A DNA stretch of 64,000 nt from Candidatus Woesearchaeota archaeon (lineage in GTDB: Archaea > Nanobdellota > Nanobdellia > Woesearchaeales > SKGA01), in the NCBI GenBank assembly GCA_050187915.1, contig JBFXLI010000001.1, positions 35,920 to 99,919 of the forward strand, written 5' to 3'. The notes below the pieces were generated by a model, which did not search any database, had not been told where the DNA came from, and worked only from the letters and a program-made list of their open reading frames with translations. The position numbers and the translations under genes were made by a program. Shown here in pieces: positions 1,025 through 34,050 of the stretch (positions are counted from its first letter, which is position 1; each line of letters opens with the position of its first letter).

Positions 1025-2809
1025 TTAATTGGCCTTCTTAGGGACTCTTTTTTTAGGTTTTGACTTTCTAGATGTAATTTTAAATACTAAAAAACCTGTA
1101 ATAAATCCCATAAAAAACAAGAAAACACAAAATAGCAATAATTTAATATCATATGCAAATGAATAGTTTTTTTGTTGTGGAAAATAATAACTTAAATCAC
1201 TAAATATTAATCCATATTCTGAAAATAACAAAGCAGTTTCTTCTTGTGTATCTATTAAATTTCTTGAATATTCTAAATAACTATAACCCATTATTGGAAA
1301 TGCATTTTTTTGTTTTGAAATCATTTCTTCAACTACATTTAATTTTTCTACAACAATTTCTTTTGTTTTATTTTCAGGAACACCAAAAATAGTCATAAAA
1401 TAATTTCCATTTGCTCTAGCTTTTGAAGCTGTGTATAAACACATAACATTATTTTGTTGATTTGAAAAATATTTTGCATGTTGATTTGCTTCTTTAATAC
1501 TTGATAAATAAATATCAGGAATATAAGCCTCTAAATAACTTAATATCATTTCTGATTTTTGAAGTTCACGAAAACAAGCGTTTCTTAGATGCTCTTCATC
1601 TATAATTAAAGATACTCCTTCTTGTCCTAAAAAAATACTCCAAGCAACTGCACTTTGATATCTTTCTATTGCAAAAGCTAAATCTGTATATGAAATATTT
1701 GTTGAATTTATATTTTTTAAATAATCTTTAGATTCTATTAATCTTTCTTGTATAATCATGTATGCTTCTAAATCTGTAAATGTTAATAATTCATATTCTG
1801 AAATACTTTTTTCAAATTTTTCAATTTTTTCATTTAATGAATTTAAATTTTCATTTAATAAAGTTTGACTTAAATTTTTAAGTTGTAATTCTCTTAATCT
1901 TAAGTTTGCTGAATAACAAAATGATGCAGTTGAATAATATTGTTCTTTTAATGAAGAATTTAAAGATTTTTCATAACTTTCTTGAGCTAAGACATATAAT
2001 TCGTCTTCTTTATTTTCAATTTGATTTAAGGATTCTATTGTTTTTTCGCATAAAATTTCGCTTGTTTTTTTCATAGTTTCAATATAAAATTCAGGTATTT
2101 GTATTTCTTTTTTATCTTCTGATTTAATTCCTGAAATTTTTTCAAATGCTTCGGAAATTGTTTTAACATAATATATATTTGAATATTTTTTAAAATCATT
2201 TTTGTTTAAAATTTCTTCATATAATTCATCAGTTTCATTAATGGTTGAATTTAATTGAGTTTTAAATTCTTCTTCAAAAATTAAACTATTATTTGTAAAT
2301 GCAAATTCAGGTAATATTATTAAATTTAAATTTTTTGCTGCTTCAACTTTTTCTTTTATTCCATCAACAGGTAAAATTATTCCTCCTGAAGAAATCATTC
2401 CTGTCATTGCAATATTTTCATTTATTGGAATATCTTCTAGTGTTGCTAAAGTTAGAAGAGTTATTGCTCCACCGGCACTAGGTCCACCAACTATTGCAGA
2501 ATCTGCTTTTATTGTATAAAAGAAATTATAATTTTCGCAATCAAATTTTGAGATTGAACAAGCAATTTCATTTGCGATTTTTGTTGAAAGTTGTGTATCT
2601 ATTTTTGACAATGGATAACTATCTATAAAAACTGAACCATGTCCTGGTTTTACTTGTAAAATTAATTGAGCTGTTTTTCCAACATAACTTCCGTTTTCTA
2701 ATTCTGCAACTGAAAGAAGCGTCATTGTGTTTACTTTATTTATATCTAAAGCATTTACAATAGGAAGTAATAATATTAAAATTAAACTTAGTAAAAATAT
2801 TTTTTTCAT
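1025..2809 (-). CDS. Signal-peptide / C-terminally membrane-anchored protein with an N-terminal Lon (S16) proteolytic domain, followed by a long helical region.
   Basis: Hydrophobic signal peptide MKKIFLLSLILILLLPIVNA. Then SAIVGGPSAGGAITLL...MTGMISSGG...KEKVEAAK, matching the Lon catalytic Ser motif GPSAG and the downstream Lys region. C-terminal TM helix plus a basic tail KPKKRVPKKAN. Confidence 0.5.
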   Translation of the reverse strand: MKKIFLLSLILILLLPIVNALDINKVNTMTLLSVAELENGSYVGKTAQLILQVKPGHGSVFIDSYPLSKIDTQLSTKIANEIACSISKFDCENYNFFYTIKADSAIVGGPSAGGAITLLTLATLEDIPINENIAMTGMISSGGIILPVDGIKEKVEAAKNLNLIILPEFAFTNNSLIFEEEFKTQLNSTINETDELYEEILNKNDFKKYSNIYYVKTISEAFEKISGIKSEDKKEIQIPEFYIETMKKTSEILCEKTIESLNQIENKEDELYVLAQESYEKSLNSSLKEQYYSTASFCYSANLRLRELQLKNLSQTLLNENLNSLNEKIEKFEKSISEYELLTFTDLEAYMIIQERLIESKDYLKNINSTNISYTDLAFAIERYQSAVAWSIFLGQEGVSLIIDEEHLRNACFRELQKSEMILSYLEAYIPDIYLSSIKEANQHAKYFSNQQNNVMCLYTASKARANGNYFMTIFGVPENKTKEIVVEKLNVVEEMISKQKNAFPIMGYSYLEYSRNLIDTQEETALLFSEYGLIFSDLSYYFPQQKNYSFAYDIKLLLFCVFLFFMGFITGFLVFKITSRKSKPKKRVPKKAN

Positions 2810-2849
2810 ATAAATTGAAGAAAATACAACTACTTAAAAAGTTTAGTGT

Positions 2850-3086
2850 TTATTTTCTAAAAACCTTAAAAGAATGAGGATTTAAACATAAAGTTCTATC
2901 ATCTTCAAGAGTTACTTCATAAGGCAATTCTTGATCATAAGTATTAATATGACTAACATATCCTATAGAACCTTTTTTCACAGGATTACCTTCGTCATCA
3001 AGAAGATTTTCATCAATTATTTTTATTTTATCGTTTTTTCCTATATAATCTCCTAAACCAATAATAGTTACAGTTCCATTAACCAT
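2850..3086 (-). CDS. Small hypothetical protein (78 aa).
   Basis: Intact ORF with no recognisable catalytic motifs. Sits 84 bp downstream of the 3171..4016 ORF. Confidence 0.35.
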   Translation of the reverse strand: MVNGTVTIIGLGDYIGKNDKIKIIDENLLDDEGNPVKKGSIGYVSHINTYDQELPYEVTLEDDRTLCLNPHSFKVFRK

Positions 3087-3170
3087 TGTTTCTATAATAC
3101 GTCCATAATCTAAATTCCAATAACCTCTGGCACATTCTAATTTATTTTCTTCGTTTCTTGATTCCCAATG

Positions 3171-4016
3171 TTATCTATATTCAGTGAATGCTTCATAATC
3201 TCCATCTGAAACTTTTCCAGATACTTCAACTGCATATACTATTCCACCATGCTCAGAAGCTAAAAAAGGATCTTTGAAAACAAAAACTGCATTTTCTCTA
3301 GAAGCATTTTCAGGAAATTCTTGTTGTCTTACTTTTTCAATATATGATTCAATTTCTGCAATTTCACCTGTGTAAGGATCAGGTCTTAATTTAGAAGGCT
3401 TAATAACATCACCTTTATTAAATAAAAATGAAGACGCATGATAATATTTAGATTTTAGTATAGGAAGTTTTTTATACTTTGTTACACGCTCATTTAAAAT
3501 CATTAATTGTCTATCAAATTTAATAACATCTTTATATTCTCCTTTCAATAAAATTATTTCTTTTTCAAGACATTTAGAAAGTAAAACTAAAATTCTGTTT
3601 GAATCAAGTATTGAATTAATACTATTATCTCTATCTTCAATAAATTTTAATAATTTTTTCTCTTGTTCAAGTAAATCCTGTAATTCGTCTAATTTATTAA
3701 GTGCATCATAAAGAGTTATTAATTCATGTTTAAATAACAATTTATGTCTTAATTCTTCTTTTTCAATGTTTTTTTCTAATTGTTTATATTCTTTTAATTT
3801 ATTTAATACGTGTAAATTTCGTTCTAAAAAATCTTTGGATTTTTGTAGAGTAAAATATAAATTCTGTCCAGACATATTATTTAACATTTTAATTAAATAA
3901 TTATATTTCTCTTGAGTAAATTGTTGTAACTTAGATAAAAATTGAAGAATATTATGAAGTTCAGTATCTTGTTCTTTTATTTCTTCTGGAATAGATTTTT
4001 TGGGATTAAAAAACAT
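3171..4016 (-). CDS. Hypothetical coiled-coil protein (281 aa).
   Basis: ORF rich in heptad-like K/E/L stretches (LEKNIEKEELRHKLLFKHEL...). The C-terminal ~100 aa are non-coiled. No family recognised. Confidence 0.35.
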   Translation of the reverse strand: MFFNPKKSIPEEIKEQDTELHNILQFLSKLQQFTQEKYNYLIKMLNNMSGQNLYFTLQKSKDFLERNLHVLNKLKEYKQLEKNIEKEELRHKLLFKHELITLYDALNKLDELQDLLEQEKKLLKFIEDRDNSINSILDSNRILVLLSKCLEKEIILLKGEYKDVIKFDRQLMILNERVTKYKKLPILKSKYYHASSFLFNKGDVIKPSKLRPDPYTGEIAEIESYIEKVRQQEFPENASRENAVFVFKDPFLASEHGGIVYAVEVSGKVSDGDYEAFTEYR

Positions 4017-4060
4017 AAATTAAAAATAAATTAAAGTATATATAAAGTTTTTTAAAAAGT

Positions 4061-4663
4061 TTAATGTTTATTTCTTCCTCTTAATTCAACTGTTTCAAGT
4101 CTTTTTAAAACTTTTTCAGAATCTTCAAACTTATATCCTTTCAAGAATTCTTTATAAAATTCAGTTACATTTTTATAATGTGTACTTTCTATTGCTTGTT
4201 TTAAAAGATGTATGTCTACTGCCATATCTTCTATTTTTTTAGAAAACAATGAAAGTCCAAAATCTATTAAATATAATTTTTCAGATTTATCAACAAGTAT
4301 GTTTGAAGTTGTTAAATCTCCGTGTATTATTCCATTTTCATGCATTTTTGCAAGCCAATTTCCTACTTTTTTAAGATAAATTTTTTTAGAAGTATCTTCA
4401 ATTAAAACATCTCTTAATCTTTTTCCATCTATAAAATCCATACAAATGGTAAATTTATCATCAGATTCATATATTTTAGGAACATTTATTTTTAATTCTT
4501 TTAATTTATTCATAACTTTAATTTCTCTTTTTGTTCTATTAAGTCTTATTTTATTGTCTAATTCAACATGTCGATAACTTTTTTGTATTCTTTTTTTTAA
4601 TATTTTATCGTCTTTTAAAACAAGTATGGCTTCTGCTCCTTGTGAAATTATTTTTTCTTGCAT
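4061..4663 (-). CDS. bud32: Bud32/Kae1-associated Ser/Thr kinase (KEOPS subunit), RIO-like.
   Basis: GAEAILVLKDD (glycine-rich loop), HGDLTTSNILV (catalytic loop), IDFGLS (DFG), and a C-terminal VELRGRNKH. The track ORF runs to 4684 (MLLFLCF...); I placed the start at the ATG at 4663-4661 (MQEKII...). Confidence 0.75.
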   Translation of the reverse strand: MQEKIISQGAEAILVLKDDKILKKRIQKSYRHVELDNKIRLNRTKREIKVMNKLKELKINVPKIYESDDKFTICMDFIDGKRLRDVLIEDTSKKIYLKKVGNWLAKMHENGIIHGDLTTSNILVDKSEKLYLIDFGLSLFSKKIEDMAVDIHLLKQAIESTHYKNVTEFYKEFLKGYKFEDSEKVLKRLETVELRGRNKH

Positions 4664-4772
4664 GAAACATAAAAAAAGTAACATAAATAAAAAGATTTGT
4701 ATTAATTGCCTTTAAATTTTAATGAAATAAAAACATAATGTTTATAAAGAAGTAATTTAGAAAACTATTAAA

Positions 4773-7415
4773 TTGAACTATTACGATAATTTAACGGAAA
4801 AAGAGGCAGACAAAAGATTAAAGGAATATGGACTTAATGCTTTGAAAGATGTTTCAAAATCAGGTCCACTTAAAATATTTCTAAGACAAGTAAAAGATAA
4901 TTTTATAGTTTATTTACTTTTAGCTGCAACAATTCTATCATTTATCGTTGGAAAAGATTTAACTGCATATACTATTTTAGTTGTTATAGTTGTTATAATT
5001 ATAATGGGTTTTGTACAAGAGTATAAAGCTGAAAAAGAAGTTGATGCTTTAAAAAAATTAATTAAAAATATTATTACTGTTGTAAGAGGTGGTGAAGAGA
5101 ATCAAATAGAATCTTCACTTTTAGTTCCTGGTGACATAATTTTATTAAAAATGGGAGAAAAAGTCCCTGCAGATTGTGTTGTTTTAGAAGAAAAAGAACT
5201 TGGCGTTGATGAATCTACTTTAACAGGTGAATCTTTAGCAGTTAACAAATCTCCTTGTTTAAAAGAAAAAGAAAAACATGAAAATGAAAATATGATTTTT
5301 GCTGGAACTTATGTTGTTAATGGTAAATGTACTGCAAAAGTTTTACACACAGGTATGAATACTGCTTTTGGAAAGATTTCAAAAATGATTTCAAAAGTAG
5401 AGAAAAAATTACCTCTTCAAATAAAAGTAAATAACCTTGCAAAATACATGGTATATATAACTTTATTTTTTGCATTTTTAACAGGATTTTTAGTTTTAAA
5501 TATAAATAAAGGAGTACCTGGAATATATATTGATGTATTAATACTTATGATTGCTTTTTGTGTTGCGGCATTTCCTGAAGGTTTTCCCGTGGTTTTAACC
5601 ATTGCTTTAACTCTTGGTGCAAAAAGAATGTCTGAAAAAAATGCAATTGTTAATAGGATGTCTGTTATTGAAACTTTAGGTGAAACAACGGTTATATGTT
5701 CTGATAAAACTGGTACTATAACTAAAGGAGAAATGACTGTTAAAAAAATATATGCAAATAATAGTTATTATGATGTTACGGGTTCAGGATATTCAAGATT
5801 CGGTATTTTTTTAAAAAATGGTAAAGAAGTAAAATTTGAAAAAAACAAAGTATTTGATTTAATATTTAAAAATTGTGTTCTTTGTAATGATGCAAAAATA
5901 AAAATAAATCCTGAATATGAAACTGAATACAAAGGACTTGGTTCTCCAACAGAAATTGCTTTAATGGTTTTAGCTTCAAAAGCAAATTATTCTTTAGAAG
6001 ATTTAAATTCTGAAAGAATTGAAGAAATAAATTTTAACTCAAGTAGAAAAATGATGACTGTTTTAAATAAAATAGGAAAAAAGAAATTTATTTTTTCAAA
6101 AGGAGCTCCTGAAATAATTCTACATAAATGTTCTCATATATATAAGAATGGGAAAAAAGTAAAACTAACTAAAAAAGAAAAAGAAAAATTACTAAAAATT
6201 ATAACTGAATTAAATTCAAATGCAATGAGAACAATAGGACTTGCATATAAAGATGAAACTAAAATTAAAAAAGAGAATTTTGAAAATAATTTAATTTTCT
6301 TAGGTATTCTTGGTTTAGAAGATGCTCCAAGAGAAGAAGTTAAAGAATCAATTTCAAAATGTTTTATTGCAGGAATTAAAGTTAAAATGATTACTGGAGA
6401 TAATTATGAAACTGCGGTATCCATAGGAAAACAAGTAGGTTTAGAAGGAAAAGTCTTAACAGGAATAGAAATGGATGAATTAAGTGATGAAGAATTAAAA
6501 AATATTGTAAATGATATTGTTATATTTGCAAGAGTACGTCCTGAACATAAATTAAGAATTGTTAATGCTTTAAAAGAAAATGGTGAAATAGTTACTATGA
6601 CTGGTGATGGTGTTAATGATGCTCCTGCTTTAAAAGAAGCACACATAGGTGTAGCAATGGGTAAAAATGGAACTGATGTTTCAAGAAGTGTTGCAGACTT
6701 AACTTTAAAAGATGATCACTTTAATACTATAGTAGAAGCAATAAAAGAAGGAAGAACTATTTTTAATAATATTAGAAAATTTACAAGTTATCTTTTAACG
6801 TGTAAATTCGCTGAGATAAGTATTTTATTTTTAGGTGTACTTCTCGCACCCTATTTAGGTTGGCAAGTTCCTTTTTTACTTGCAATACACATTTTATTTA
6901 TGAATTTAGTAACTGATGATTTACCTGCAATGACTTTATCTGTAACACCATCATCTGAACATATTATGCAAGAAAAACCTAGAAAAAATCATGAATTAAT
7001 GACTAGAAGTCATTTCATACTTAGTATTTTAGGTGGACTTACAATGTGTTTAATTGTATTGTCAACATTTTATATTTCATTTAATTTAATGAATCATGAT
7101 ATGAGTTATTCAAGAACGATGGCGCTTTTAACTTTAATTTGCATTGAAATTGCAAATGCATTTAACTTTATGTCGTTTAAAAGAATAATGAAAATCAAAT
7201 CATTTTTAGCAAATAAGTATTTATTTTTTGCTTCAATCATTTCAATAATAGCGACAATTTTAATAATTTATACACCTTTAAATAAGGTTTTTGAAACAAT
7301 TCCTTTAGCACCATTGGATTGGATTATTGCTTTATCACTTTGTTCAATTATGATTTTATTCTTCAATTTACTTAAATATTTAAATTCAAAATTTAATTTT
7401 TTAAAATTAGATTAG
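4773..7415 (+). CDS. P-type cation-transporting ATPase (type II, Ca2+/cation).
   Basis: CSDKTGTITKG (phosphorylation DKTGT), MITGDN, GDGVNDAPALKEAHIGVAMG, ~10 TM segments, 880 aa. Start is TTG at 4773 according to the track. Confidence 0.9.
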   Translation: MNYYDNLTEKEADKRLKEYGLNALKDVSKSGPLKIFLRQVKDNFIVYLLLAATILSFIVGKDLTAYTILVVIVVIIIMGFVQEYKAEKEVDALKKLIKNIITVVRGGEENQIESSLLVPGDIILLKMGEKVPADCVVLEEKELGVDESTLTGESLAVNKSPCLKEKEKHENENMIFAGTYVVNGKCTAKVLHTGMNTAFGKISKMISKVEKKLPLQIKVNNLAKYMVYITLFFAFLTGFLVLNINKGVPGIYIDVLILMIAFCVAAFPEGFPVVLTIALTLGAKRMSEKNAIVNRMSVIETLGETTVICSDKTGTITKGEMTVKKIYANNSYYDVTGSGYSRFGIFLKNGKEVKFEKNKVFDLIFKNCVLCNDAKIKINPEYETEYKGLGSPTEIALMVLASKANYSLEDLNSERIEEINFNSSRKMMTVLNKIGKKKFIFSKGAPEIILHKCSHIYKNGKKVKLTKKEKEKLLKIITELNSNAMRTIGLAYKDETKIKKENFENNLIFLGILGLEDAPREEVKESISKCFIAGIKVKMITGDNYETAVSIGKQVGLEGKVLTGIEMDELSDEELKNIVNDIVIFARVRPEHKLRIVNALKENGEIVTMTGDGVNDAPALKEAHIGVAMGKNGTDVSRSVADLTLKDDHFNTIVEAIKEGRTIFNNIRKFTSYLLTCKFAEISILFLGVLLAPYLGWQVPFLLAIHILFMNLVTDDLPAMTLSVTPSSEHIMQEKPRKNHELMTRSHFILSILGGLTMCLIVLSTFYISFNLMNHDMSYSRTMALLTLICIEIANAFNFMSFKRIMKIKSFLANKYLFFASIISIIATILIIYTPLNKVFETIPLAPLDWIIALSLCSIMILFFNLLKYLNSKFNFLKLD

Positions 7416-12902: not shown

Positions 12903-13307
12903 ATGGAAGAAATAAAATTACAAGTAGGAGTTAAAGCACTTTTAAAAAATAAAGAAGGAAAATATCTACTTTTAAAGAGAAATCCTGAAATTTATCCTGA
13001 TGTAAAAAATAACTGGGATATAGTTGGTGGAAGAATTAATCCTGGAAAATCTCTTTTTGAAAATTTACAAAGAGAAGTTTATGAAGAAACAAAGTTAAAT
13101 TTAATTAAAGAACCTGAATTAATTTTTGCTCAAGATATTTTAATTCCGAACAAACACGTTGTTCGTTTAACTTTTATTGGGGAAATAGAAGGTACACCAA
13201 TATTAGATGAAGAACATTTAGAATATAAGTGGCTAACCATTGAAGAAATGAAATTAATGTCTCAATTAGATAATAAATTAAAAGAAGTTTTAAAAGAGAA
13301 ATTTTAA
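12903..13307 (+). CDS. NUDIX hydrolase.
   Basis: Nudix box GGRINPGKSLFENLQREVYEETKL (GX5EX7REVXEETG). Confidence 0.8.
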   Translation: MEEIKLQVGVKALLKNKEGKYLLLKRNPEIYPDVKNNWDIVGGRINPGKSLFENLQREVYEETKLNLIKEPELIFAQDILIPNKHVVRLTFIGEIEGTPILDEEHLEYKWLTIEEMKLMSQLDNKLKEVLKEKF

Positions 13308-13955
13308 ATGAAAATTAGAAAATATAAATCTTCAGATAGAAAACAAGTAGAACATATTAACTTTGAAACTGCATTCTTAGGAAAATCTATGTCTAAATTT
13401 CTTTCAAACAATAAAATTTACAAAAACAACATCAAATATTATGTTGAAAAAGAACCTGAAAGTATTTTTGTTCTTGAAGATAAAAATAAAGTTGTTGGTT
13501 ACTTGTTAGGTTGTTTAGATGATAAAAACAATAGTGAAATATTTGAAGCTATTTCTACAAACATGAAAAATTTCTTTAAAAGTTTCTTCCTACCAAAAAA
13601 AGATAGAATTTATTGGAGAGGACAATTTTTTCAATTACTGAATATACTTTTAACATTTTCACCTGAAATGAGATTTAAAACTCCTAAAAACGCAGGACAT
13701 ATTCACATAAATCTTCTTCCAGAAGCTCGTGGAAAAAATTATGGAACAAAATTATTAAATGAATATGCAAAATATGCTAAAACAAAAGGAGCGAAAATAA
13801 TTCATGCTGGAAGTTTTAAAACAAATCTTAATCCTAACACTAATTTTTGGTTAAAAAACAAATTTAAAGTTTATTCTGAAATAAAAACTTCAATTTGGAA
13901 AAAACAATTACCTAAAGAAAATATTAAATTAGTTTGTTATGTTAGAGAATTATAA
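13308..13955 (+). CDS. GNAT-family N-acetyltransferase (putative).
   Basis: C-terminal HINLLPEARGKNYGTKLLNEYAKYAKTKGAKIIHAG resembles the GNAT acetyl-CoA binding motif A (R/Q-x-x-G-x-G/A). Start abuts the NUDIX stop (TAAATG). Confidence 0.5.
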   Translation: MKIRKYKSSDRKQVEHINFETAFLGKSMSKFLSNNKIYKNNIKYYVEKEPESIFVLEDKNKVVGYLLGCLDDKNNSEIFEAISTNMKNFFKSFFLPKKDRIYWRGQFFQLLNILLTFSPEMRFKTPKNAGHIHINLLPEARGKNYGTKLLNEYAKYAKTKGAKIIHAGSFKTNLNPNTNFWLKNKFKVYSEIKTSIWKKQLPKENIKLVCYVREL

Positions 13956-14375
13956 ATTTTTAATTAATAATTTAACTTCAGTAGAGATGTTGTAGTTTTG
14001 CAGTTCATTTTTATTTAACCAAATATAATTTTCATGTTCAGACAAAATTATATTAGAAAAATCTTGAATTTTTACAATAAAATTAAATTGTCTTGTTAAA
14101 TAATTATTTTTGGAAAAATAATCAAAAAAATCAACATATTTGATGATTTCATACAAATCTAAATTAGTTTCTTCTTTGATTTCTCTCCCCAATGCTTCTT
14201 TAATAGATTCTTTCAGTTCTATTTTTCCACTTGGAAGTTCATATAATCCTCCTTTAAAATCATTTTTAGAACGTTGAAGAAACAAAACTTGAGAATCATT
14301 TTGAATTATAGCTCCAACTACCAATCTGTTAATACCTTTTTTTCTAGCTTGTTTCAATAAATCTTCATAATCCAT
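13950..14375 (-). CDS. NUDIX hydrolase; last gene of the minus-strand sugar/aminocyclitol-like operon.
   Basis: Nudix box SGKIELKESIKEALGREIKEETNL. Its ATG overlaps the DegT stop by 1 nt. It is a paralog of the 18458..18889 NUDIX. Confidence 0.8.
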   Translation of the reverse strand: MDYEDLLKQARKKGINRLVVGAIIQNDSQVLFLQRSKNDFKGGLYELPSGKIELKESIKEALGREIKEETNLDLYEIIKYVDFFDYFSKNNYLTRQFNFIVKIQDFSNIILSEHENYIWLNKNELQNYNISTEVKLLIKNL

Positions 14376-15625
14376 TATAAAAGCTCCTTATAATTTTCTA
14401 CAACCTTTCGAATACCTTGAATGTATGCATTTACTTTTTTCATATCATTTTCACTATACCAAACAGGAAGTTTTAATAATTTAGAATGAAATTTTGTGGC
14501 ATTAGGAAAATCATTTTCAGCATAAATAACTTTCCCCATATAATTTGGAAATAATTCTCCGGGATTTTGAAATAAAGGTAAATAATTTAATGGGCATGTA
14601 GAACTAGGCATATCTACTTCTGATAATCCTTCTGCTTGTAAAGCTTCAAAAAATTTCTCTCTAGATAAATTTTCTAACTCTTCAGAGTTATATTTAATTA
14701 TAAACGCATACCAACTAGGTTGTATACTTTCATCAAAAATAGGTAATTCTATTCCTCTTAAATCTTTCAAAGAATCTATCATATACTTTGCAATTTTTCT
14801 TCGTCCATTTAAAATTTCTTCTAAATGTTCAAATTGTTGTTCAGCTATTGCATTAGCTAAAGGATGTGATCTTAATTTTAAACCCATTCCTGTAGTTGAA
14901 AATTTAGATAAACCATGATCTTTGGGTATTTCTAATTTACATCGTTTATTATAATGACCCAATAATAAAGCTCTATAAAATACTTCATCATCTTTTGTCA
15001 ATAAGAACCCTCCTTCACCACCTGTTAAAGTTTTTTGACCTTGCATACTAAACGCAGAAGAGTTTCCAAAAGTTCCTATTTTTTGACCATGATAACTAGC
15101 TCCATGAGCATGAGAACCGTCTTCCATTAATGAAAGATTATTTTTATTTGCAACATGTTTTATATTTTCCATATCTGCAGGAACACCCCACATATGAGTT
15201 ACTACAACACCTTTACTTTTGGAAGTTATTTTATTTTCTAAATCTTTAAAATCTAAATTTCCATTTTTATCACAATCAACTAAAACAGGTGTAGCACCTG
15301 TAAAAAATAGAGGCGTTACAGTTGCATAAAAAGTATAAGCTGGAACTAAAACTTCATCACCTTCTTTAAAATTTTCACCTACATACATTGAATGTAAAGC
15401 AGAAGTTCCTGAATTAGTTAGAATAGCATGTTTTACATTATGATATTCTTTTAACTTTTCTTCTAATCTTTCAATAATTCCTGAACGATTATATATCGAA
15501 ATATTTTCATCAAGTTGATTTAAAACGTATTTTTTAGTTTCATTCGATATTTCAGGCCAAATAAATTTAGAATCATCAGAATTAATAATTTTAGTTCCGC
15601 CATTCAAAGCAAGTTTATTTTTCAT
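14375..15625 (-). CDS. DegT/DnrJ/EryC1/StrS-family PLP-dependent sugar (or inosose) aminotransferase.
   Basis: LNGGTKII, VLVPAYTFYATVTP, VTHMWGVPADM, and SFSMQGQKTLTGGEGG (PLP-Lys region) are typical of the family. I placed the start at the ATG at 15625 (MKNKLALNGG), immediately after the upstream stop. Confidence 0.85.
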   Translation of the reverse strand: MKNKLALNGGTKIINSDDSKFIWPEISNETKKYVLNQLDENISIYNRSGIIERLEEKLKEYHNVKHAILTNSGTSALHSMYVGENFKEGDEVLVPAYTFYATVTPLFFTGATPVLVDCDKNGNLDFKDLENKITSKSKGVVVTHMWGVPADMENIKHVANKNNLSLMEDGSHAHGASYHGQKIGTFGNSSAFSMQGQKTLTGGEGGFLLTKDDEVFYRALLLGHYNKRCKLEIPKDHGLSKFSTTGMGLKLRSHPLANAIAEQQFEHLEEILNGRRKIAKYMIDSLKDLRGIELPIFDESIQPSWYAFIIKYNSEELENLSREKFFEALQAEGLSEVDMPSSTCPLNYLPLFQNPGELFPNYMGKVIYAENDFPNATKFHSKLLKLPVWYSENDMKKVNAYIQGIRKVVENYKELL

Positions 15626-15626
15626 T

Positions 15627-16247
15627 TCATTTCCTCTTAAGTATATCTTCAATAATTGAAGTGAGTTGTTGTGTATTTTCATTTAAATCATCAACAGATC
15701 TCATTTCTATAAATTCAACATTTTTTAGTTTTTTCGGCCTTTTTTCATAAATTATTCTTTTATATGCTTTTCTAAATTCAACTAAATCAGAATAATTTTC
15801 ATCACGTAGAAGATTTTGACGTATTTGTAATCTTTCCATGGCCTCAACAGGATCAATATCAATATAAATTGCAAAATCAGGTACAAAATTAGGTTCCAAT
15901 AAATCAATATACCATTCAGGAAGTATACCTAAATGACTTGCATAAGCAGTTATAATGCTTCTATCAGAAATTACAAAATCATTTTTGAATACATTCGGTG
16001 ATAGATTGGCTCTTGCTGATAAAGCATATAATGTTTCTTGAATCATTCTTGGATTAAATAAGCCTGAAAATATTCCTTTGGAATTTATTTTGTAAACTTT
16101 TTTTATTAGTTGACCAAAAAAATTATTTTTATCACTATAATTATAAATACTTAAATTAATATTTTTTTCTTGAAAAATATTTTTTTGAATGGAAACTTGA
16201 GTACTTTTTCCAGTTCCATCAATACCTTCCAACGCAATATATTTCAT
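15627..16247 (-). CDS. Thymidylate-kinase-family P-loop kinase (Tmk-like).
   Basis: MKYIALEGIDGTGKSTQ (P-loop), DRSIITAYA (the Tmk DRY/F motif region), and a LID-like ERLQIRQNLLRDENY. Start placed at the internal ATG at 16247, which abuts the upstream gene's stop. Confidence 0.65.
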   Translation of the reverse strand: MKYIALEGIDGTGKSTQVSIQKNIFQEKNINLSIYNYSDKNNFFGQLIKKVYKINSKGIFSGLFNPRMIQETLYALSARANLSPNVFKNDFVISDRSIITAYASHLGILPEWYIDLLEPNFVPDFAIYIDIDPVEAMERLQIRQNLLRDENYSDLVEFRKAYKRIIYEKRPKKLKNVEFIEMRSVDDLNENTQQLTSIIEDILKRK

Positions 16248-16248
16248 T

Positions 16249-17349
16249 TTAATCAAAATAATTCTCCAAAACTTCTTTTCTTCTAACATCTACAGTAGTA
16301 CAATGCAAACCTCCACCAAAAAGCTCGCTATGTCTAAGTCTAAAAGGAATTGGTTCAAATCCTGCACGTTTTAATGCATATATAGTTAATTCTGCATTGT
16401 CTCTAATTAAAATTCTTTTTTCATCAAGGGAAATAACATTTACACTCATACCAAAATCAGTTGCCATTTGCAAATGATCTGGAGGATAATTAAATTTTTT
16501 AGATTCATCTAATATAGGTATAATATCCCATTTTTGTAAAGCGGAAGGTAAATTTTGATATAAACCTTCCATAACACTTTCATTAACTAAAAGTTTTCCT
16601 GGTGCTATAGGAATTAAATGACCATCTAAATGACTATCTGAAATTCTTACTATGTGTATATTATATTTATCTCCAAAATGATTTTTTAACCAATATGCTC
16701 CCAATTCTTGATTTTTTGTTGCTGCATTAATAACTAAATCTTTTCCAAATTTCAGGCAATTAGCTGCATCAATTGAAATATCTAAATTAAATTCAATATC
16801 AACCATATCATTTATTGGTTTAAATAAATTATCTTTCCAATAAGATCTGTCTTGTTTATCTATACTTAAAAAAGGTCTTGGAGCTACAGTCCATTTAGCA
16901 CCTTTTCTAAAATAATCCATAAAAATGTCTCTCAATAAATAACCTTCAAAATATCTTTTTGTATTTGTGGGTGGTGTTTCAATTATTTCATCACCATAAC
17001 ACAAAAACATATCTCTTGGAGAATCAGATGCTGTTGTAAAAGAAGAAAAGTAAGGCGTTTTAATTTCGTTTATTTCATCTACTATTGCAGGTCGTCTTAC
17101 AACAATTCCCTCTTTCTCTAGAAGTTCTTGTAAATTATTTAAATCTTCTTGTCTTTCTTCAATATATCTTTTATCAATCATCCAAGGATAATTTCTATCT
17201 TTAAATTTACCATCTCTATTTTCATACATAAATCTAAAAGATTCATCAATTTTCAAATGATTAAAATTAACTGAATTTCCAATAATTATTTCTTGTAATG
17301 GAGCCCATTCAGTATAAACATTAACTGGACACGAATTTTTATTTTTCAT
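16249..17349 (-). CDS. Amidinotransferase (glycine amidinotransferase / inosamine-phosphate amidinotransferase StrB1-like).
   Basis: N-terminal NVYTEWAPLQEIIIG and C-terminal HSELFGGGLHCTTVDVRRK. These match the conserved ends of AGAT/StrB1 enzymes, including the catalytic Cys in GGxHC. Confidence 0.75.
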   Translation of the reverse strand: MKNKNSCPVNVYTEWAPLQEIIIGNSVNFNHLKIDESFRFMYENRDGKFKDRNYPWMIDKRYIEERQEDLNNLQELLEKEGIVVRRPAIVDEINEIKTPYFSSFTTASDSPRDMFLCYGDEIIETPPTNTKRYFEGYLLRDIFMDYFRKGAKWTVAPRPFLSIDKQDRSYWKDNLFKPINDMVDIEFNLDISIDAANCLKFGKDLVINAATKNQELGAYWLKNHFGDKYNIHIVRISDSHLDGHLIPIAPGKLLVNESVMEGLYQNLPSALQKWDIIPILDESKKFNYPPDHLQMATDFGMSVNVISLDEKRILIRDNAELTIYALKRAGFEPIPFRLRHSELFGGGLHCTTVDVRRKEVLENYFD

Positions 17350-18346
17350 TATTCAAAAACTCCTTAGGATCAACAAATCTATTTTCTTCCATAGATTTAT
17401 AACAAGCTTCAACAAAACTTGCATGTTGAAGATGATAATTAGGACTACCAATATTTTCTTTTTCACCTTTTAAAACTTGACAAAAATAATCTATTTGATT
17501 AGTTGATGCAGAAGGCCAAGCATTTTCTCTTATTAAAGATTCAACTAAAGTTCCATCTTCTTTAAATCTTTTAATACTACCTCTTTGAACATCAACAACG
17601 CCTTTACTTCCTATAACTCTTAAATACTCTGTTTTAGGAGCATAAAATCTAGATAATAATAAACTCCCATTTAAACCATTATCGTACGAAAATAATATTG
17701 ATGCTGTGTCTTCTGCATCATATTTTTCATCAGGTTTTGCGCTATTTGAATATCTGGCTTGAATTTTATTAGGTAAACCAAAATACCAAATAATCATATC
17801 TATCATGTGATATCCCATATCTATAATACAACCACCACCTGCCTTTTCTTTATCGCCTCTCCAACCTTCATGAGGTGATTTTACGAATAAAGAATATTTT
17901 GCATCAATTAAAAATGGTTTACCTATTTGATCTATTAATTGAAAAAATGTTTTATAAATAGGATTAAATCTTCTTTGTAATGTTGTCATAATTTCTATAT
18001 TATTTTCTTTTGCTAATTTCGCAAAATATTTGGCTTCAGAAACACTTATTGCAAAAGGTTTTTCCTTTAATATATGCACTCCTTGTTTTGCAGAGGATTC
18101 AATTATGGATTTATACTGATTATGAGGAACTGCAGCTATAATGAAATCTAATTTTTCATTATCAAGCATTGTTTTAAAATCAAAATAACTTCTTATTTCG
18201 TTTTCAATTCCAATCTTAGAAACTAAATCAGAATTAATATCGCAAATAGCTTCTAACTTAGCATATTGAGAATCTTTTATACCTGGCAAGTGATCTTCTT
18301 TAACTTGGTGTCCTAAACCAACTATACCTATTTTTAATAATTCCAT
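17339..18346 (-). CDS. Gfo/Idh/MocA-family NAD(P)-dependent oxidoreductase (inositol 2-dehydrogenase / sugar 3-dehydrogenase-like).
   Basis: MELLKIGIVGLGHQ (Rossmann GxGxxG) and EKPFAIS (the EKP motif of Gfo/Idh/MocA). Start set at the ATG at 18346; the track extends to 18466. Confidence 0.8.
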   Translation of the reverse strand: MELLKIGIVGLGHQVKEDHLPGIKDSQYAKLEAICDINSDLVSKIGIENEIRSYFDFKTMLDNEKLDFIIAAVPHNQYKSIIESSAKQGVHILKEKPFAISVSEAKYFAKLAKENNIEIMTTLQRRFNPIYKTFFQLIDQIGKPFLIDAKYSLFVKSPHEGWRGDKEKAGGGCIIDMGYHMIDMIIWYFGLPNKIQARYSNSAKPDEKYDAEDTASILFSYDNGLNGSLLLSRFYAPKTEYLRVIGSKGVVDVQRGSIKRFKEDGTLVESLIRENAWPSASTNQIDYFCQVLKGEKENIGSPNYHLQHASFVEACYKSMEENRFVDPKEFLNNEK

Positions 18347-18457
18347 AAAAATACAATTATTAATGTATTTAAAAAAATATCTAAGAATTATCCGTAAATT
18401 TTTCGGTTCATATATGATTTTAGAAAAACTTATAATATGATTGAATAAACATATAAT

Positions 18458-18889
18458 ATGAATCAAAAATATCAGAAAATAACTGTGGCGGGACTATTAA
18501 TACATAACAACAACGTATTAATTGTCAAAAGGTCTGAAAAAGAAGATTTTCTTTGTGGTTATTATGAACTTCCTGGTGGAAAAGTTGATTTCAATGAACA
18601 TCCTGAAGAAGCTTTAATTAGAGAATTTAAAGAAGAAACTAATTTAAACATAATTCCAAAAGAAATATACAGAGTTTTCACATATATTTCTCATGAAAAA
18701 CAGCGTCACACAATAGAACTTGTTTATTTAGTTGAATTAAATGACAAAATTGAAAATTTAAAACTTAGTGAAGAACATAATGATTTTAAATTTATTTCTT
18801 TAGATGAATTAAATAAATACAAATTAAGTGATGAAATAAAATTGAATATTAAATTAGGTTTAAAAGAAAGTCTTTTAAAAACTAATTAA
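18458..18889 (+). CDS. NUDIX hydrolase.
   Basis: Nudix box GGKVDFNEHPEEALIREFKEETNL. It is divergent from the operon promoter region and paralogous to the 13950..14375 protein. Confidence 0.8.
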   Translation: MNQKYQKITVAGLLIHNNNVLIVKRSEKEDFLCGYYELPGGKVDFNEHPEEALIREFKEETNLNIIPKEIYRVFTYISHEKQRHTIELVYLVELNDKIENLKLSEEHNDFKFISLDELNKYKLSDEIKLNIKLGLKESLLKTN

Positions 18890-19040: not shown

Positions 19041-19763
19041 TTGCTAATTATGGATGAAATTACTCATATATCTCAAAGAGATAGTCCAAAAATCATAAAA
19101 TATCCTTTTGTATTAGTATATGACATAATGTTGCCTCATTTAGGAAATCAATATAAAATAAATCCTAAATTAAATGAAAGATTATTTCGTAATTTAAATT
19201 TTAATAGTAGAAAAATAGCTTGTGTAGATGTTCTTGAAGATATGGGTATTAAATATTTGAAGGAAGGAAAAGATAATTTTCTAGAAAAAGCTTTGGAATG
19301 TTATAGATTTTCAATTTGGACAAGATTCCGTTTTTCTTTAGAAAAGAAATTAAATCCAAATCAAATAATACCTAAAAATGAAAAAAAATTTCTTAATATT
19401 GAATCAAATTTTGAAAAAAAATTATCTAGTTATTTGGATAAATTAAATGAAAAAGATAAATTTGATTATTATAATTGGGTAGATACCTTAAGATCTATGC
19501 ATGATGATTTAAATTATCAATTTGCTAGTGGAACCTATAATACTATTGATTTTGCTAGATTATGTTTTAGATTGGGACGCTACAACGATGGTTTAAATGC
19601 AATTGAAAAATTAACTAAAAATCAAACTGAATATCAAAAAAGTCAAGGTGATTTATTATTGGCTTTGAAAAAAAAAGCGGAAAGAGAAAAATCTGAACAG
19701 CTAATTGATGTAGAATATTTAAAAGAAAAAATAAAATCAAATATTATTTATATGGAATCCTAG
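19041..19763 (+). CDS. Hypothetical protein (240 aa).
   Basis: Intact ORF, no family recognised. Confidence 0.4.
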   Translation: MLIMDEITHISQRDSPKIIKYPFVLVYDIMLPHLGNQYKINPKLNERLFRNLNFNSRKIACVDVLEDMGIKYLKEGKDNFLEKALECYRFSIWTRFRFSLEKKLNPNQIIPKNEKKFLNIESNFEKKLSSYLDKLNEKDKFDYYNWVDTLRSMHDDLNYQFASGTYNTIDFARLCFRLGRYNDGLNAIEKLTKNQTEYQKSQGDLLLALKKKAEREKSEQLIDVEYLKEKIKSNIIYMES

Positions 19764-26742: not shown

Positions 26743-26817
26743 GGCAGGGCCTGGGATTTGAACCCAAACTAGAAGATCCACAGTCTTCTGTGCTAACCAG
26801 ATTACACTAACCCCACC
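26743..26817 (-). tRNA. tRNA-His (anticodon GUG), with the G-1 residue genomically encoded and no encoded CCA.
   Basis: The minus strand reads G(-1)-GTGGGGT-TA-GTGT-AATCTGGTTA-GCAC-A-GAAGA-CTGTGGA-TCTTC-TAGTT-TTGGG-TTCAAAT-CCCAG-GCCCTGC-C. The cloverleaf folds: acceptor 7 bp (three G.U pairs), D arm 4 bp, anticodon stem GAAGA/TCTTC with loop CTGTGGA (U33, GTG at 34-36, G37), T arm TTGGG/CCCAG with a TTCAAAT loop, and discriminator C73 pairing G-1. A TATA-like TTTATAT sits ~25 nt upstream. Confidence 0.8.
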
Positions 26818-33724: not shown

Positions 33725-34050
33725 TGAAAGAAAAAACTGACGTCTGCTCCACTGATTCGCTGACTCCAGAAAAAAGTGGCGCGCAAGGCAGTGGACTTAA
33801 CAAATATCTGAATGATAGTCTGAAATAATTCTACTCTCTGCAACCCTTTAAACACCGATTGAATGTACGCATGGCTGCTACCGTCAGGTCCTGACCAGGT
33901 TTGTAAAACAAACGATCAAAAAGGACAGAGCATCAAACAAATTAAATCAGCATGCAAACATTTGCAAGCCGCCTGCCAAGCTTCGATTCGCCCAACGATC
34001 CGTTTGACGCAACAGGTGAGGATCAGCCACCCAATCTAGCCATCTTTAGA
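33725..34050. other. Non-coding GC-rich island (~48-50% GC against a ~27% background); candidate structured RNA (possibly SRP/7S RNA on the minus strand) or foreign DNA.
   Basis: No ORF of 60 aa or more apart from one spurious one overlapping the LeuRS end. It contains GACGTC, GCGCGC, AAGCTT and GCATGC, all rare in this genome. The minus strand carries CCUGGUCAGGACCUGACGGUAGCAGCC, which resembles SRP RNA helix 8 (CCAGGUCAGGUCCGGAAGGAAGCAGCC in E. coli 4.5S), with the U-A pair covarying to A-U. Confidence 0.3.

Follow-up and report, generated by a model that had tools for sequence, protein, structure and literature searches.

The closest described counterparts of the system analysed here, a five-gene operon on the minus strand of a 64-kb stretch of a Candidatus Woesearchaeota archaeon genome (contig JBFXLI010000001.1, hereafter the window), are the gene cassettes for aminonucleosides. 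In Photorhabdus, the genes adgB-E have pur10, pur4, pur7 and pur3 as their respective homologues, and their expression in E. coli gives 3'-amino-3'-deoxyguanosine, which has been proposed to be made from GTP (PMC9239236). Pur4 is an aminotransferase, and Pur7 is a NUDIX enzyme that turns a nucleoside triphosphate (NTP) into a nucleoside monophosphate (NMP) (PMC11641026). The operon in the window resembles the Pur10/Pur4/Pur7(/Pur3) sets of puromycin, A201A and cystocin, as well as AdgB-E, in that it encodes an NAD-dependent dehydrogenase of the Gfo/Idh/MocA type, a DegT aminotransferase and a NUDIX hydrolase. The order AdgB-C-D is also that of relatives of the window that have no amidinotransferase, and a chemistry of oxidation, transamination and removal of pyrophosphate fits. 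However, a Pur3/AdgE monophosphatase, an MFS exporter and tailoring enzymes are all missing from the window, and two of its enzymes, an amidinotransferase and the Tmk-like kinase dedicated to it, are found in none of the known clusters. What is new with respect to the known aminonucleoside cassette is therefore the addition of these two enzymes, the absence of a phosphatase and an exporter, and the host, a DPANN archaeon. The reading that we favour, with slightly less than even confidence, is that the operon would convert an NTP through a 3'-oxo intermediate and a 3'-amino-3'-deoxy-NMP into a 3'-guanidino-NMP that is re-phosphorylated, where we infer the substrate, the position, the base, the order of the steps, the product and the role. 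The analysis itself establishes how the genes are arranged, their families, the intact catalytic residues of the amidinotransferase, the co-conservation, the modular build and the nucleotide-related partners.

Several other known systems share part of this logic. The streptidine branch (StrI, StsC, an inosamine kinase and StrB1) also proceeds by oxidation, transamination, phosphorylation and amidination, and its amidinotransferase has the same family, triad and fold as the enzyme in the window. It differs in that the window amidinotransferase belongs to another clade (31% identity), the kinase has the NMP-kinase fold, a NUDIX gene is present and is fused to DegT in relatives, inositol and glycosylation genes are absent, and the oxidoreductase falls short of the inositol dehydrogenase models. 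The routes to 3-amino sugars (RifL-RifK-RifM, NtdC-NtdA-NtdB and WbpB-WbpE) likewise combine a Gfo/Idh/MocA 3-dehydrogenase with an aminotransferase of the DegT fold and remove the handle, a nucleotide or a phosphate, afterwards. In the window, however, the enzyme that would remove the handle is a NUDIX hydrolase and not a HAD phosphatase, the partners are nucleotide kinases, and there are no genes for sugar activation or transfer. An NMP kinase linked to a nucleotide-analogue synthase is known from viperin and CMPK2 (bioRxiv 10.1101/2023.09.13.557418). The operon is similar to this pair in linking a putative ribose modifier, which would yield a non-extendable nucleotide, to an NMP kinase, and three groups of related loci even have a MoaA/viperin-like first step. 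On the defence side, a possible likeness lies in the restriction-modification genes beside three of the five actinobacterial cassettes and in a match of the NUDIX proteins to the candidate PDC-S07. Unlike viperin systems, the window has no viperin, would use oxidation and transamination instead of dehydration, and places the operon in a housekeeping neighbourhood. Searches of the literature brought up no account of this operon, of a link between an amidinotransferase and Tmk or NUDIX genes, of an amidinotransferase in DPANN archaea or together with aminonucleosides, of the three core genes as one system, or of a defence system made of Gfo, DegT and NUDIX proteins.

Composition of the operon

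The operon consists of the following genes, in the order of transcription:

17339 to 18346, minus strand: gene 1, Gfo/Idh/MocA NAD(P) oxidoreductase, 335 aa (Pfam N and C domains)
16249 to 17349, minus strand: gene 2, AGAT/StrB1-family amidinotransferase (AMT), 366 aa (phmmer against PDB, triad, predicted fold)
15627 to 16247, minus strand: gene 3, Tmk-family P-loop nucleotide kinase, called type A, 206 aa (Pfam Thymidylate_kin and dNK)
14375 to 15625, minus strand: gene 4, DegT/DnrJ/EryC1-family pyridoxal phosphate-dependent aminotransferase, 416 aa (Pfam)
13950 to 14375, minus strand: gene 5, core-cassette NUDIX hydrolase, 141 aa (Pfam NUDIX and NUDIX_4)

All five genes are co-directional (13950-18346) and intact, with ATG starts and no internal stop codons when the open reading frames (ORFs) were checked. 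The oxidoreductase and AMT genes overlap by 11 nt and the DegT and NUDIX genes by 1 nt, while 1 nt separates AMT from the kinase and the kinase from DegT; each of the four internal start codons has a GGAG-like motif upstream. The GC content of the operon (0.27) is the same as that of its flanks. An earlier note on this DNA had described a five-gene operon with these coordinates, junctions of at most 11 nt and these family assignments, all of which held when the ORFs were verified and the families were examined by Pfam (four genes) and by PDB search (AMT). Its range, however, ended at 18889 and so took in a divergent plus-strand NUDIX gene (18458-18889) that is not in the operon.

The enzyme that sets this operon apart is the AMT. 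A phmmer search against PDB returned HsvA (4.9e-57), SxtG (1.1e-56), StrB1 (4.3e-49) and AGAT (6e-48), with residues 4-366 covered. Among the Pfam families expected from the earlier description, GFO_IDH_MocA, Thymidylate_kin and DegT_DnrJ_EryC1 were matched by their genes but no amidinotransferase model was; the AMT has no match to any Pfam-A family even at E<=10, and its homologues in the protein database likewise have no precomputed Pfam domain. This is a matter of model coverage and not an argument against membership in the AGAT family. Residues D194, H240 and C350 of the AMT align to D179, H227 and C332 of StrB1, which we take to be its catalytic triad, and D113 and D242 are the accessory Asp residues; all five are invariant in an alignment of 26 homologues. 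The AlphaFold model (pLDDT 90, pTM 0.91) is closest by Foldseek to StrB1 (TM-score 0.84/0.88), with HsvA (0.80), SxtG (0.79) and AGAT (0.79-0.81) behind it and DDAH and arginine deiminase next at about 0.55, which indicates the pentein fold. As judged from its sequence and predicted structure, the AMT is a genuine and competent-looking enzyme of the AGAT/StrB1 family, as the earlier note had held, and it is predicted to carry out arginine-dependent amidino transfer. A specific likeness to StrB1, in contrast, was not borne out by phylogeny. Identity is 31% to StrB1 and 31-33% to HsvA and SxtG, and in a neighbour-joining tree the characterised enzymes lie across the midpoint root from the AMT, whereas the cassette-linked AMTs form one monophyletic clade of their own.

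Relatives of the AMT were collected by scanning one genome per species, which gave 261 loci, and the best 80 were retained (L-numbers here are labels of the loci compared). The closest outgroup AMT, in L015, is 56-57% identical, and the genes after it (L015 274-10295) encode a PALP enzyme, a class I/II aminotransferase, an Orn/Arg decarboxylase, an arginase-family protein, a D-Ala-D-Ala-ligase-like ATP-grasp protein and a C39-like peptidase. By analogy, this context is one of polyamine or amino-acid metabolism, reminiscent of HsvA. Homologues of about 40% identity in Bdellovibrionota/Bacteriovoracaceae (L024-L045) lie in large clusters that also encode several radical SAM/SPASM proteins, glycosyltransferases of family GT1, a carbamoyltransferase of the NodU/CmcH type, an amidohydrolase and DegT, and that look like an uncharacterised aminoglycoside- or glycan-type pathway. 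Such differences in context among relatives suggest that acceptor specificity shifts within the family, so that context is the best guide to function. More distant AGAT-family proteins (23-36% identity) are encoded by 72 viral contigs of IMG/VR (L087-L158), with two copies in L095, L114 and L117. None of these 72 contigs links the gene to the cassette, and a phage origin or a role in phage DNA hypermodification was therefore dropped. Unannotated proteins of about 365 aa that adjoin the cassette in L086 and L165 were tested as hidden amidinotransferases and are not.

The type-A kinase matches Thymidylate_kin (1e-16, 61.7 bits against a cut-off of 27) and dNK (4e-6), and its alignment shows a P-loop (GIDGTGKST) and a DR motif (DRS). 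On the dTMP-kinase equivalog model TIGR00041 it scores 68.0 bits, below the cut-off of 83.25, and its type-A relatives score 46.6-85.3 bits, of which only that of L002 passes. Its best PDB match is 2plr (1e-9), and in PADLOC it has weak matches to VakA (1e-5) and PDC-M51B.

The remaining three enzymes are well placed in their families, while PDB searches with the oxidoreductase, DegT and the kinase gave distant, non-discriminating matches. The oxidoreductase matches both GFO_IDH_MocA domains (6e-17 to 1e-23), has its best PDB match at about 1e-18 and lies below the cut-off of every curated equivalog model. Its score on the myo-inositol 2-dehydrogenase model TIGR04380 (100.3 bits, cut-off 355; 9e-29) is no better than those on the models for UDP-GlcNAc 3-dehydrogenase (archaeal NF040723: 96.7 bits, cut-off 450; 1.8e-27) or xylose dehydrogenase. 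DegT matches DegT_DnrJ_EryC1 at 2e-72, and in PDB it finds inosose aminotransferases at about 1e-34, with WbpE structures (82-84 bits) below QdtB, perosamine synthase and the inosose aminotransferases; the entries 8y96 and 8gyh are an uncharacterised Serratia aminotransferase. The operon NUDIX protein (Pfam 8e-15) has as its best curated matches the (d)NTP pyrophosphatases NudG (7e-15), MutT (3e-11) and NudI (3e-9), whereas its match to GDP-mannose mannosyl hydrolase (1e-4) is worse by about 10 orders of magnitude. In PADLOC 2.0 the NUDIX proteins match the candidate PDC-S07 (9e-23), and the oxidoreductase, DegT and the AMT have no match.

A core cassette and its DPANN-specific addition

Co-conservation was followed in 11 distinct DPANN loci, the window included, whose AMTs are at least 61% identical and which are mostly labelled Woesearchaeota, Pacearchaeota and Nanoarchaeia. 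The same partner genes recur in these loci in shuffled order, so that two conditions under which the earlier note would have been refuted, a lack of co-conservation and an AMT without the triad, are not borne out. DegT is immediately followed by NUDIX in nine of them, and the contigs of the other two end too early. The type-A kinase adjoins the AMT in 9/11 and is found only beside an AMT, and it is distinct from the Tmk-like kinases, type-B and actinobacterial, that go with the core cassette described below. The 64-kb window holds no other Tmk-like ORF; in each of the relatives L001 and L002 there is a second such gene. Because of the strict adjacency to the AMT and these extra Tmk-like genes in relatives, a housekeeping role of the kinase, which the earlier note had offered as an alternative, is unlikely, although its score on the dTMP-kinase hidden Markov model would still allow it.

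The oxidoreductase is present in seven of the 11 loci, and contigs of equal length among the homologues of both proteins suggest that further contigs with both it and the AMT exist. In L001/L005, L007 and L008 it is absent, and a 315-aa radical SAM protein takes its place. The best curated matches of this protein are GTP 3',8-cyclase MoaA (5e-44; 150 bits, below the cut-off) and viperin (2e-19), and it has three conserved C-terminal cysteines, a pattern that resembles the auxiliary-cluster motif of MoaA. MoaA and viperin are radical enzymes that attack the ribose of NTPs, and the MoaA type abstracts the 3'-H of GTP. Fusions also occur: L001/L005 encode a NUDIX-DegT-NUDIX protein of 716 aa (by Pfam), and L011 has an apparent DegT-NUDIX fusion, a 567-aa ORF that clusters with both families. 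A family of 390-aa proteins, whose N-terminal domain is uncharacterised and whose C-terminal part is a winged helix-turn-helix, may be a ligand-sensing regulator; it accompanies the AMT genes in L001 (5807-6979), L005, L006, L007, L008 and L012 and is not in the window. Directly upstream of the cassette in L002, which comes from a related Woesearchaeote (1387-5054; also L003 and L004), lie genes for a ThyX-like protein of 583 aa (it matches Pfam Thy1, yet scores only 27 bits on the equivalog model of thyX), a 'ParB-CE' protein of 216 aa, a Tmk-like kinase (69.6 bits) and a HAD hydrolase resembling pyrimidine 5'-nucleotidase, with CTP synthase further upstream; this block, from the ThyX-like to the HAD gene, could be another module for nucleotide modification. 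No genes for inositol supply or glycosyl transfer are present in those flanks of the archaeal AMT loci that were annotated by Pfam (the remaining ORFs were clustered only).

Outside the AMT loci, the oxidoreductase is a member of a family that comprises more than 700 clusters and is very tight, with 50-58% identity between DPANN archaea and Actinobacteria. We analysed nine loci without AMT, from Nocardia, Streptomyces bacillaris, Streptosporangium, Actinomadura, Amycolatopsis, Parcubacteria, Aenigmatarchaeota and two metagenomic contigs. In every one of them the next gene after the oxidoreductase is DegT, and in eight a NUDIX gene comes after DegT, L162 being without NUDIX. The Streptomyces bacillaris proteins share 54% (oxidoreductase), 51% (DegT) and 38% (NUDIX) identity with those of the window, and the operon NUDIX is orthologous (103-147 bits) to the NUDIX after DegT in all other loci, across phyla. 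By sequence comparison, the three window enzymes are orthologues of a three-gene cassette that is spread over Actinobacteria, the candidate phyla radiation and DPANN archaea. The operon is thus modular, with a core made of the oxidoreductase or radical SAM protein, DegT and NUDIX, and a DPANN-specific addition made of the AMT and the type-A kinase.

A nucleotide kinase abuts the cassette in six of the nine loci without AMT, and its family differs. L086 and L163 have Tmk-like kinases of an actinobacterial kind (the two were not compared), L159 has a type-B Tmk, a type that also provides the second Tmk of L001, L162 has both NDK and a Tmk that passes the dTMP-kinase cut-off, L161 has a UMP kinase of the archaeal type, and L165 has NDK. 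The Parcubacteria locus L161 (4893-9350, a metagenome-assembled genome) has a MurG-like GT28 before the cassette and, after it, the UMP kinase (179 bits, above the cut-off), an SSF transporter and a HEPN/nucleotidyltransferase pair. This GT28 is the only glycosyltransferase that abuts the cassette among the annotated neighbours, and no inositol gene was found among them. Three of the five actinobacterial cassettes border restriction-modification genes, type I hsdRSM in L163 (Actinomadura) and MmeI/Eco57I-type or N6-methyltransferase genes in L160 (Streptosporangium) and L084 (Nocardia). Nearby genes also encode a NERD-kinase protein in L084, the toxin-antitoxin pair TacA/GNAT in L160 and a transposase of the DDE type in L163, and these neighbourhoods look like defence islands. 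In Nocardia farcinica the DegT gene is frameshifted.

Proteins with a GreA/GreB domain (transcript-cleavage or Rnk-like) are encoded directly after the cassette in two unrelated loci, L162 (8887-9945) and L165 (9670-10185), and an oligoribonuclease gene (L013 7852-8415) flanks the cassette in L013/L014, where there is a weak CYTH match too. We note that GreA/Rnk-like proteins and oligoribonuclease are 3'-end-processing or NDK-regulating proteins, here beside a putative chain-terminator pathway.

A possible guanidino-nucleotide pathway and competing explanations

In the pathway that we favour, the Gfo/Idh/MocA enzyme would oxidise a hydroxyl of the ribose or deoxyribose of an NTP, most likely the 3'-OH, to a ketone, which DegT would transaminate to an amine. 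The NUDIX enzyme, acting as an NTP pyrophosphohydrolase either before or after transamination, would remove pyrophosphate to give a 3'-amino-3'-deoxy-NMP. The AMT would then move the amidino group of arginine to the amine, giving a 3'-guanidino-3'-deoxy-NMP and ornithine, and the dedicated Tmk-like kinase would re-phosphorylate the modified NMP to a nucleoside diphosphate (NDP), which can reach the NTP. A nucleotide substrate is favoured because three kinds of partnership recur around the cassette, namely non-homologous nucleotide kinases, fusion of NUDIX with DegT, and replacement of the oxidoreductase by a MoaA-like enzyme. The type of the NUDIX enzyme, nearest to (d)NTP pyrophosphatases, and putative genes of nucleotide metabolism that flank the operon in the window and the cassette in L002 point the same way. 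Since a kinase is present and a Pur3-type phosphatase is absent, the end product is probably a nucleotide and not a nucleoside.

A 3'-guanidino product could not be extended by a polymerase, and by analogy with viperin and its linked NMP kinase an antiviral or antagonistic role as a chain terminator is plausible; the window's own neighbourhood is housekeeping, and defence is for this reason put forward only as a hypothesis. We speculate that DPANN archaea make a 3'-guanidino-3'-deoxynucleoside di- or triphosphate, which would be an obligate, positively charged chain terminator directed against viruses or the host cell, and that the core cassette, which may include an NMP kinase and often borders restriction-modification genes, represents an unrecognised family of aminonucleotide immune or antagonistic systems parallel to viperin, but we regard this larger idea as doubtful. 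If the proposal were true, a nucleotide acceptor would be a substrate class not known for the AGAT family, and its product would be a natural nucleotide analogue of a type not described so far. A cassette whose members now carry only the names 'Gfo/Idh/MocA family protein', 'DegT aminotransferase' and 'NUDIX' would be given a function that can be tested, aminonucleotide synthesis, and may be the second chemical route, next to that of viperin, by which antiviral chain terminators are made from nucleotides. It would also place chemistry of a secondary-metabolite kind in DPANN archaea with tiny genomes, about whose interactions with viruses and hosts little is understood.

Several points weigh against a nucleotide pathway. 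The equation of the core families and their order with adgB-C-D, that is pur10-pur4-pur7, rests on family membership, gene order and the literature. No protein of S. alboniger or Photorhabdus is among the 120 best relatives of either oxidoreductase query (the window and Streptomyces bacillaris), and the absence of S. alboniger suggests that Pur10 may lie outside the tight oxidoreductase family. Neither a Pur3/AdgE-type monophosphatase nor an exporter is encoded in the operon or its flanks. The hints about the base conflict, the Tmk and UMP kinase families and the NUDIX matches pointing to a pyrimidine and the MoaA-like enzyme to a purine, and we know of no natural 3'-guanidino nucleotide. Pairs of Gfo/Idh/MocA and DegT enzymes also act on UDP-sugars (RifL/RifK and WbpB/WbpE), sugar phosphates (NtdC/NtdA) and inositol, and Tmk and UMP kinase make exactly the NDPs that are used in dTDP- and UDP-sugars. 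The Parcubacteria locus is the one context that favours a UDP-sugar.

These last points lead to an NDP-sugar or sugar-phosphate pathway, in which a 3-amino sugar would be built on a UDP or dTDP handle, the NUDIX enzyme would release the amino-sugar 1-phosphate and an NMP, the AMT would guanidinylate this sugar phosphate and the Tmk or UMP kinase would only recycle the NMP. We consider this rather unlikely. Its enzymes are familiar, since Gfo/Idh/MocA and DegT are the standard pair for 3-amino sugars, as in RifL/RifK, which lead to UDP-kanosamine, and WbpB/WbpE, which lead to UDP-GlcNAc3N. Pur10 itself is similar to RifL (PMC11641026). The UDP-GlcNAc 3-dehydrogenase model is matched at 1.8e-27, and a homologue bears this name in one database, but at 97 bits the match is far from the cut-off of 450; this score, together with the rank of the WbpE structures in the DegT search, speaks against the WbpB/WbpE-type route of the earlier note. 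Genomic context is divided. In the Parcubacteria locus GT28 abuts the cassette and a UMP kinase follows it, and the Bacteriovoracaceae AMT homologues lie among glycosyltransferases, a carbamoyltransferase and DegT, but a glycosyltransferase abuts the cassette in that one locus only, and the annotated neighbourhoods have neither a nucleotidyltransferase for sugar activation nor a 4,6-dehydratase. The best TM-score of the AMT is to StrB1, whose substrate is a phosphorylated cyclitol (inosamine phosphate) akin to an amino-sugar phosphate. The NUDIX enzyme, however, is nearer to NTP pyrophosphatases than to GDP-mannose mannosyl hydrolase by about 10 orders of magnitude, a MoaA/viperin-like radical SAM protein can take the place of the oxidoreductase, NDK and GreA/Rnk-like partners would have no role, and a kinase locked to the AMT is hard to reconcile with NMP recycling. 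The glycosyltransferases at 59-63 kb, which the earlier note had named as possible users of the product, are 40 kb away and their link to the operon is not conserved.

The earlier note had instead favoured an aminocyclitol or amidinated amino-sugar, with a streptidine-like model that runs from inositol through inosose and inosamine to a phosphorylated and then amidinated product. This is not the best-supported outcome, with nucleotide-related partners around the cassette and the inositol and UDP-GlcNAc models far below their cut-offs, and we regard the streptidine-like scheme as the least probable of the explanations considered here. The order of its chemistry is that of StrI, StsC, a kinase and StrB1, the inositol 2-dehydrogenase model is matched at 9e-29, DegT finds inosose aminotransferases at about 1e-34, and the AMT matches StrB1 at 4e-49 with a TM-score of 0.84. 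Yet the inositol dehydrogenase score is 100 bits against a cut-off of 355, and the AMT, at 31% identity to StrB1, is as distant from it as from HsvA and SxtG and sits in a separate clade whose nearest outgroup has a polyamine or amino-acid context. The kinase is a Tmk relative with the NMP-kinase fold and is not APH-type, whereas StrN, the kinase of the streptomycin cluster, is APH-type and has a different fold from Tmk; the equation of the two in the earlier note is an analogy of function only. Inositol-phosphate synthase is found in no locus among the annotated genes, an abutting glycosyltransferase again only in L161, and the NUDIX fusions, NDK, UMP kinase and MoaA-like enzyme would be left without a role. 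It is also quite improbable, if a little less so, that the operon does not encode one pathway, so that the Tmk-like kinase and NUDIX serve housekeeping as dTMP kinase and in sanitising the pool, while the other three enzymes would, like HsvA, have a small amine such as a polyamine or an amino acid as their substrate. Such a division would suit the scores of type-A kinases on the dTMP-kinase model (46-85 bits, one passing), the lack of another Tmk in the 64-kb window, the best PDB match of the AMT, which is the polyamine amidinotransferase HsvA, the decarboxylase, arginase-family protein and ATP-grasp of L015, the closest outgroup, and the housekeeping genes that surround the operon. It does not fit with a kinase that stays by the AMT while the rest shuffles, with the extra Tmk-like genes of L001 and L002, with NUDIX fused to DegT in some loci, with a cassette NUDIX that is orthologous across phyla and always placed after DegT, or with unrelated kinase families that converge on the same cassette.

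Surroundings of the operon

The other features of the window that bear on the operon are the following:

18347 to 18457, no strand: divergent intergenic region, 111 nt, AT-rich (sequence read directly)
18458 to 18889, plus strand: divergent NUDIX paralogue, 143 aa, outside the operon (Pfam NUDIX 3e-18)
19041 to 19763, plus strand: ORF, 240 aa, between the divergent NUDIX and an RNase P subunit gene
26743 to 26816, minus strand: tRNA
33773 to 34046, minus strand: archaeal signal recognition particle (SRP) RNA, 101 bits; with the tRNA, the only Rfam gathering-level matches in the window

The SRP RNA and the tRNA confirm that the window is archaeal, and the AMT is 100% identical to a protein placed by NCBI in a metagenome-assembled genome of Candidatus Woesearchaeota. 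The intergenic region is predicted from its sequence to be the likely promoter region of both the operon and the divergent NUDIX gene. At about 20 nt before the ATG of gene 1 there is a TTTAAATA-like element but no Shine-Dalgarno motif, and an Rfam scan found no riboswitch or other RNA element in the operon leader. The 240-aa ORF has no match in Pfam or PADLOC and no counterpart in the related loci.

The earlier note had seen paralogous NUDIX genes at both ends of the operon, with a third NUDIX and a GNAT gene just outside. The divergent NUDIX is indeed a paralogue of the operon NUDIX, a distant one (66 bits), and it is not orthologous to the second, 'pre-DegT' NUDIX family (about 165 aa) of other archaeal loci; it may be an accessory or self-protection hydrolase, and its membership in the system is uncertain. 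The third NUDIX (12903-13307), in contrast, is barely related to the operon NUDIX (35 bits), and the GNAT gene (13308-13955) is conserved in no related locus, for which reason its reading as a pac-like resistance acetyltransferase was dropped. The wider neighbourhood is housekeeping, with purM/purN-like ORFs adjoining the operon, pgk-like and RNase P subunit-like ORFs (recognised by eye from the translations) and the SRP RNA. The purM/purN-like ORFs, as judged from their translations only and with no profile test, are nucleotide-metabolism neighbours of the operon.

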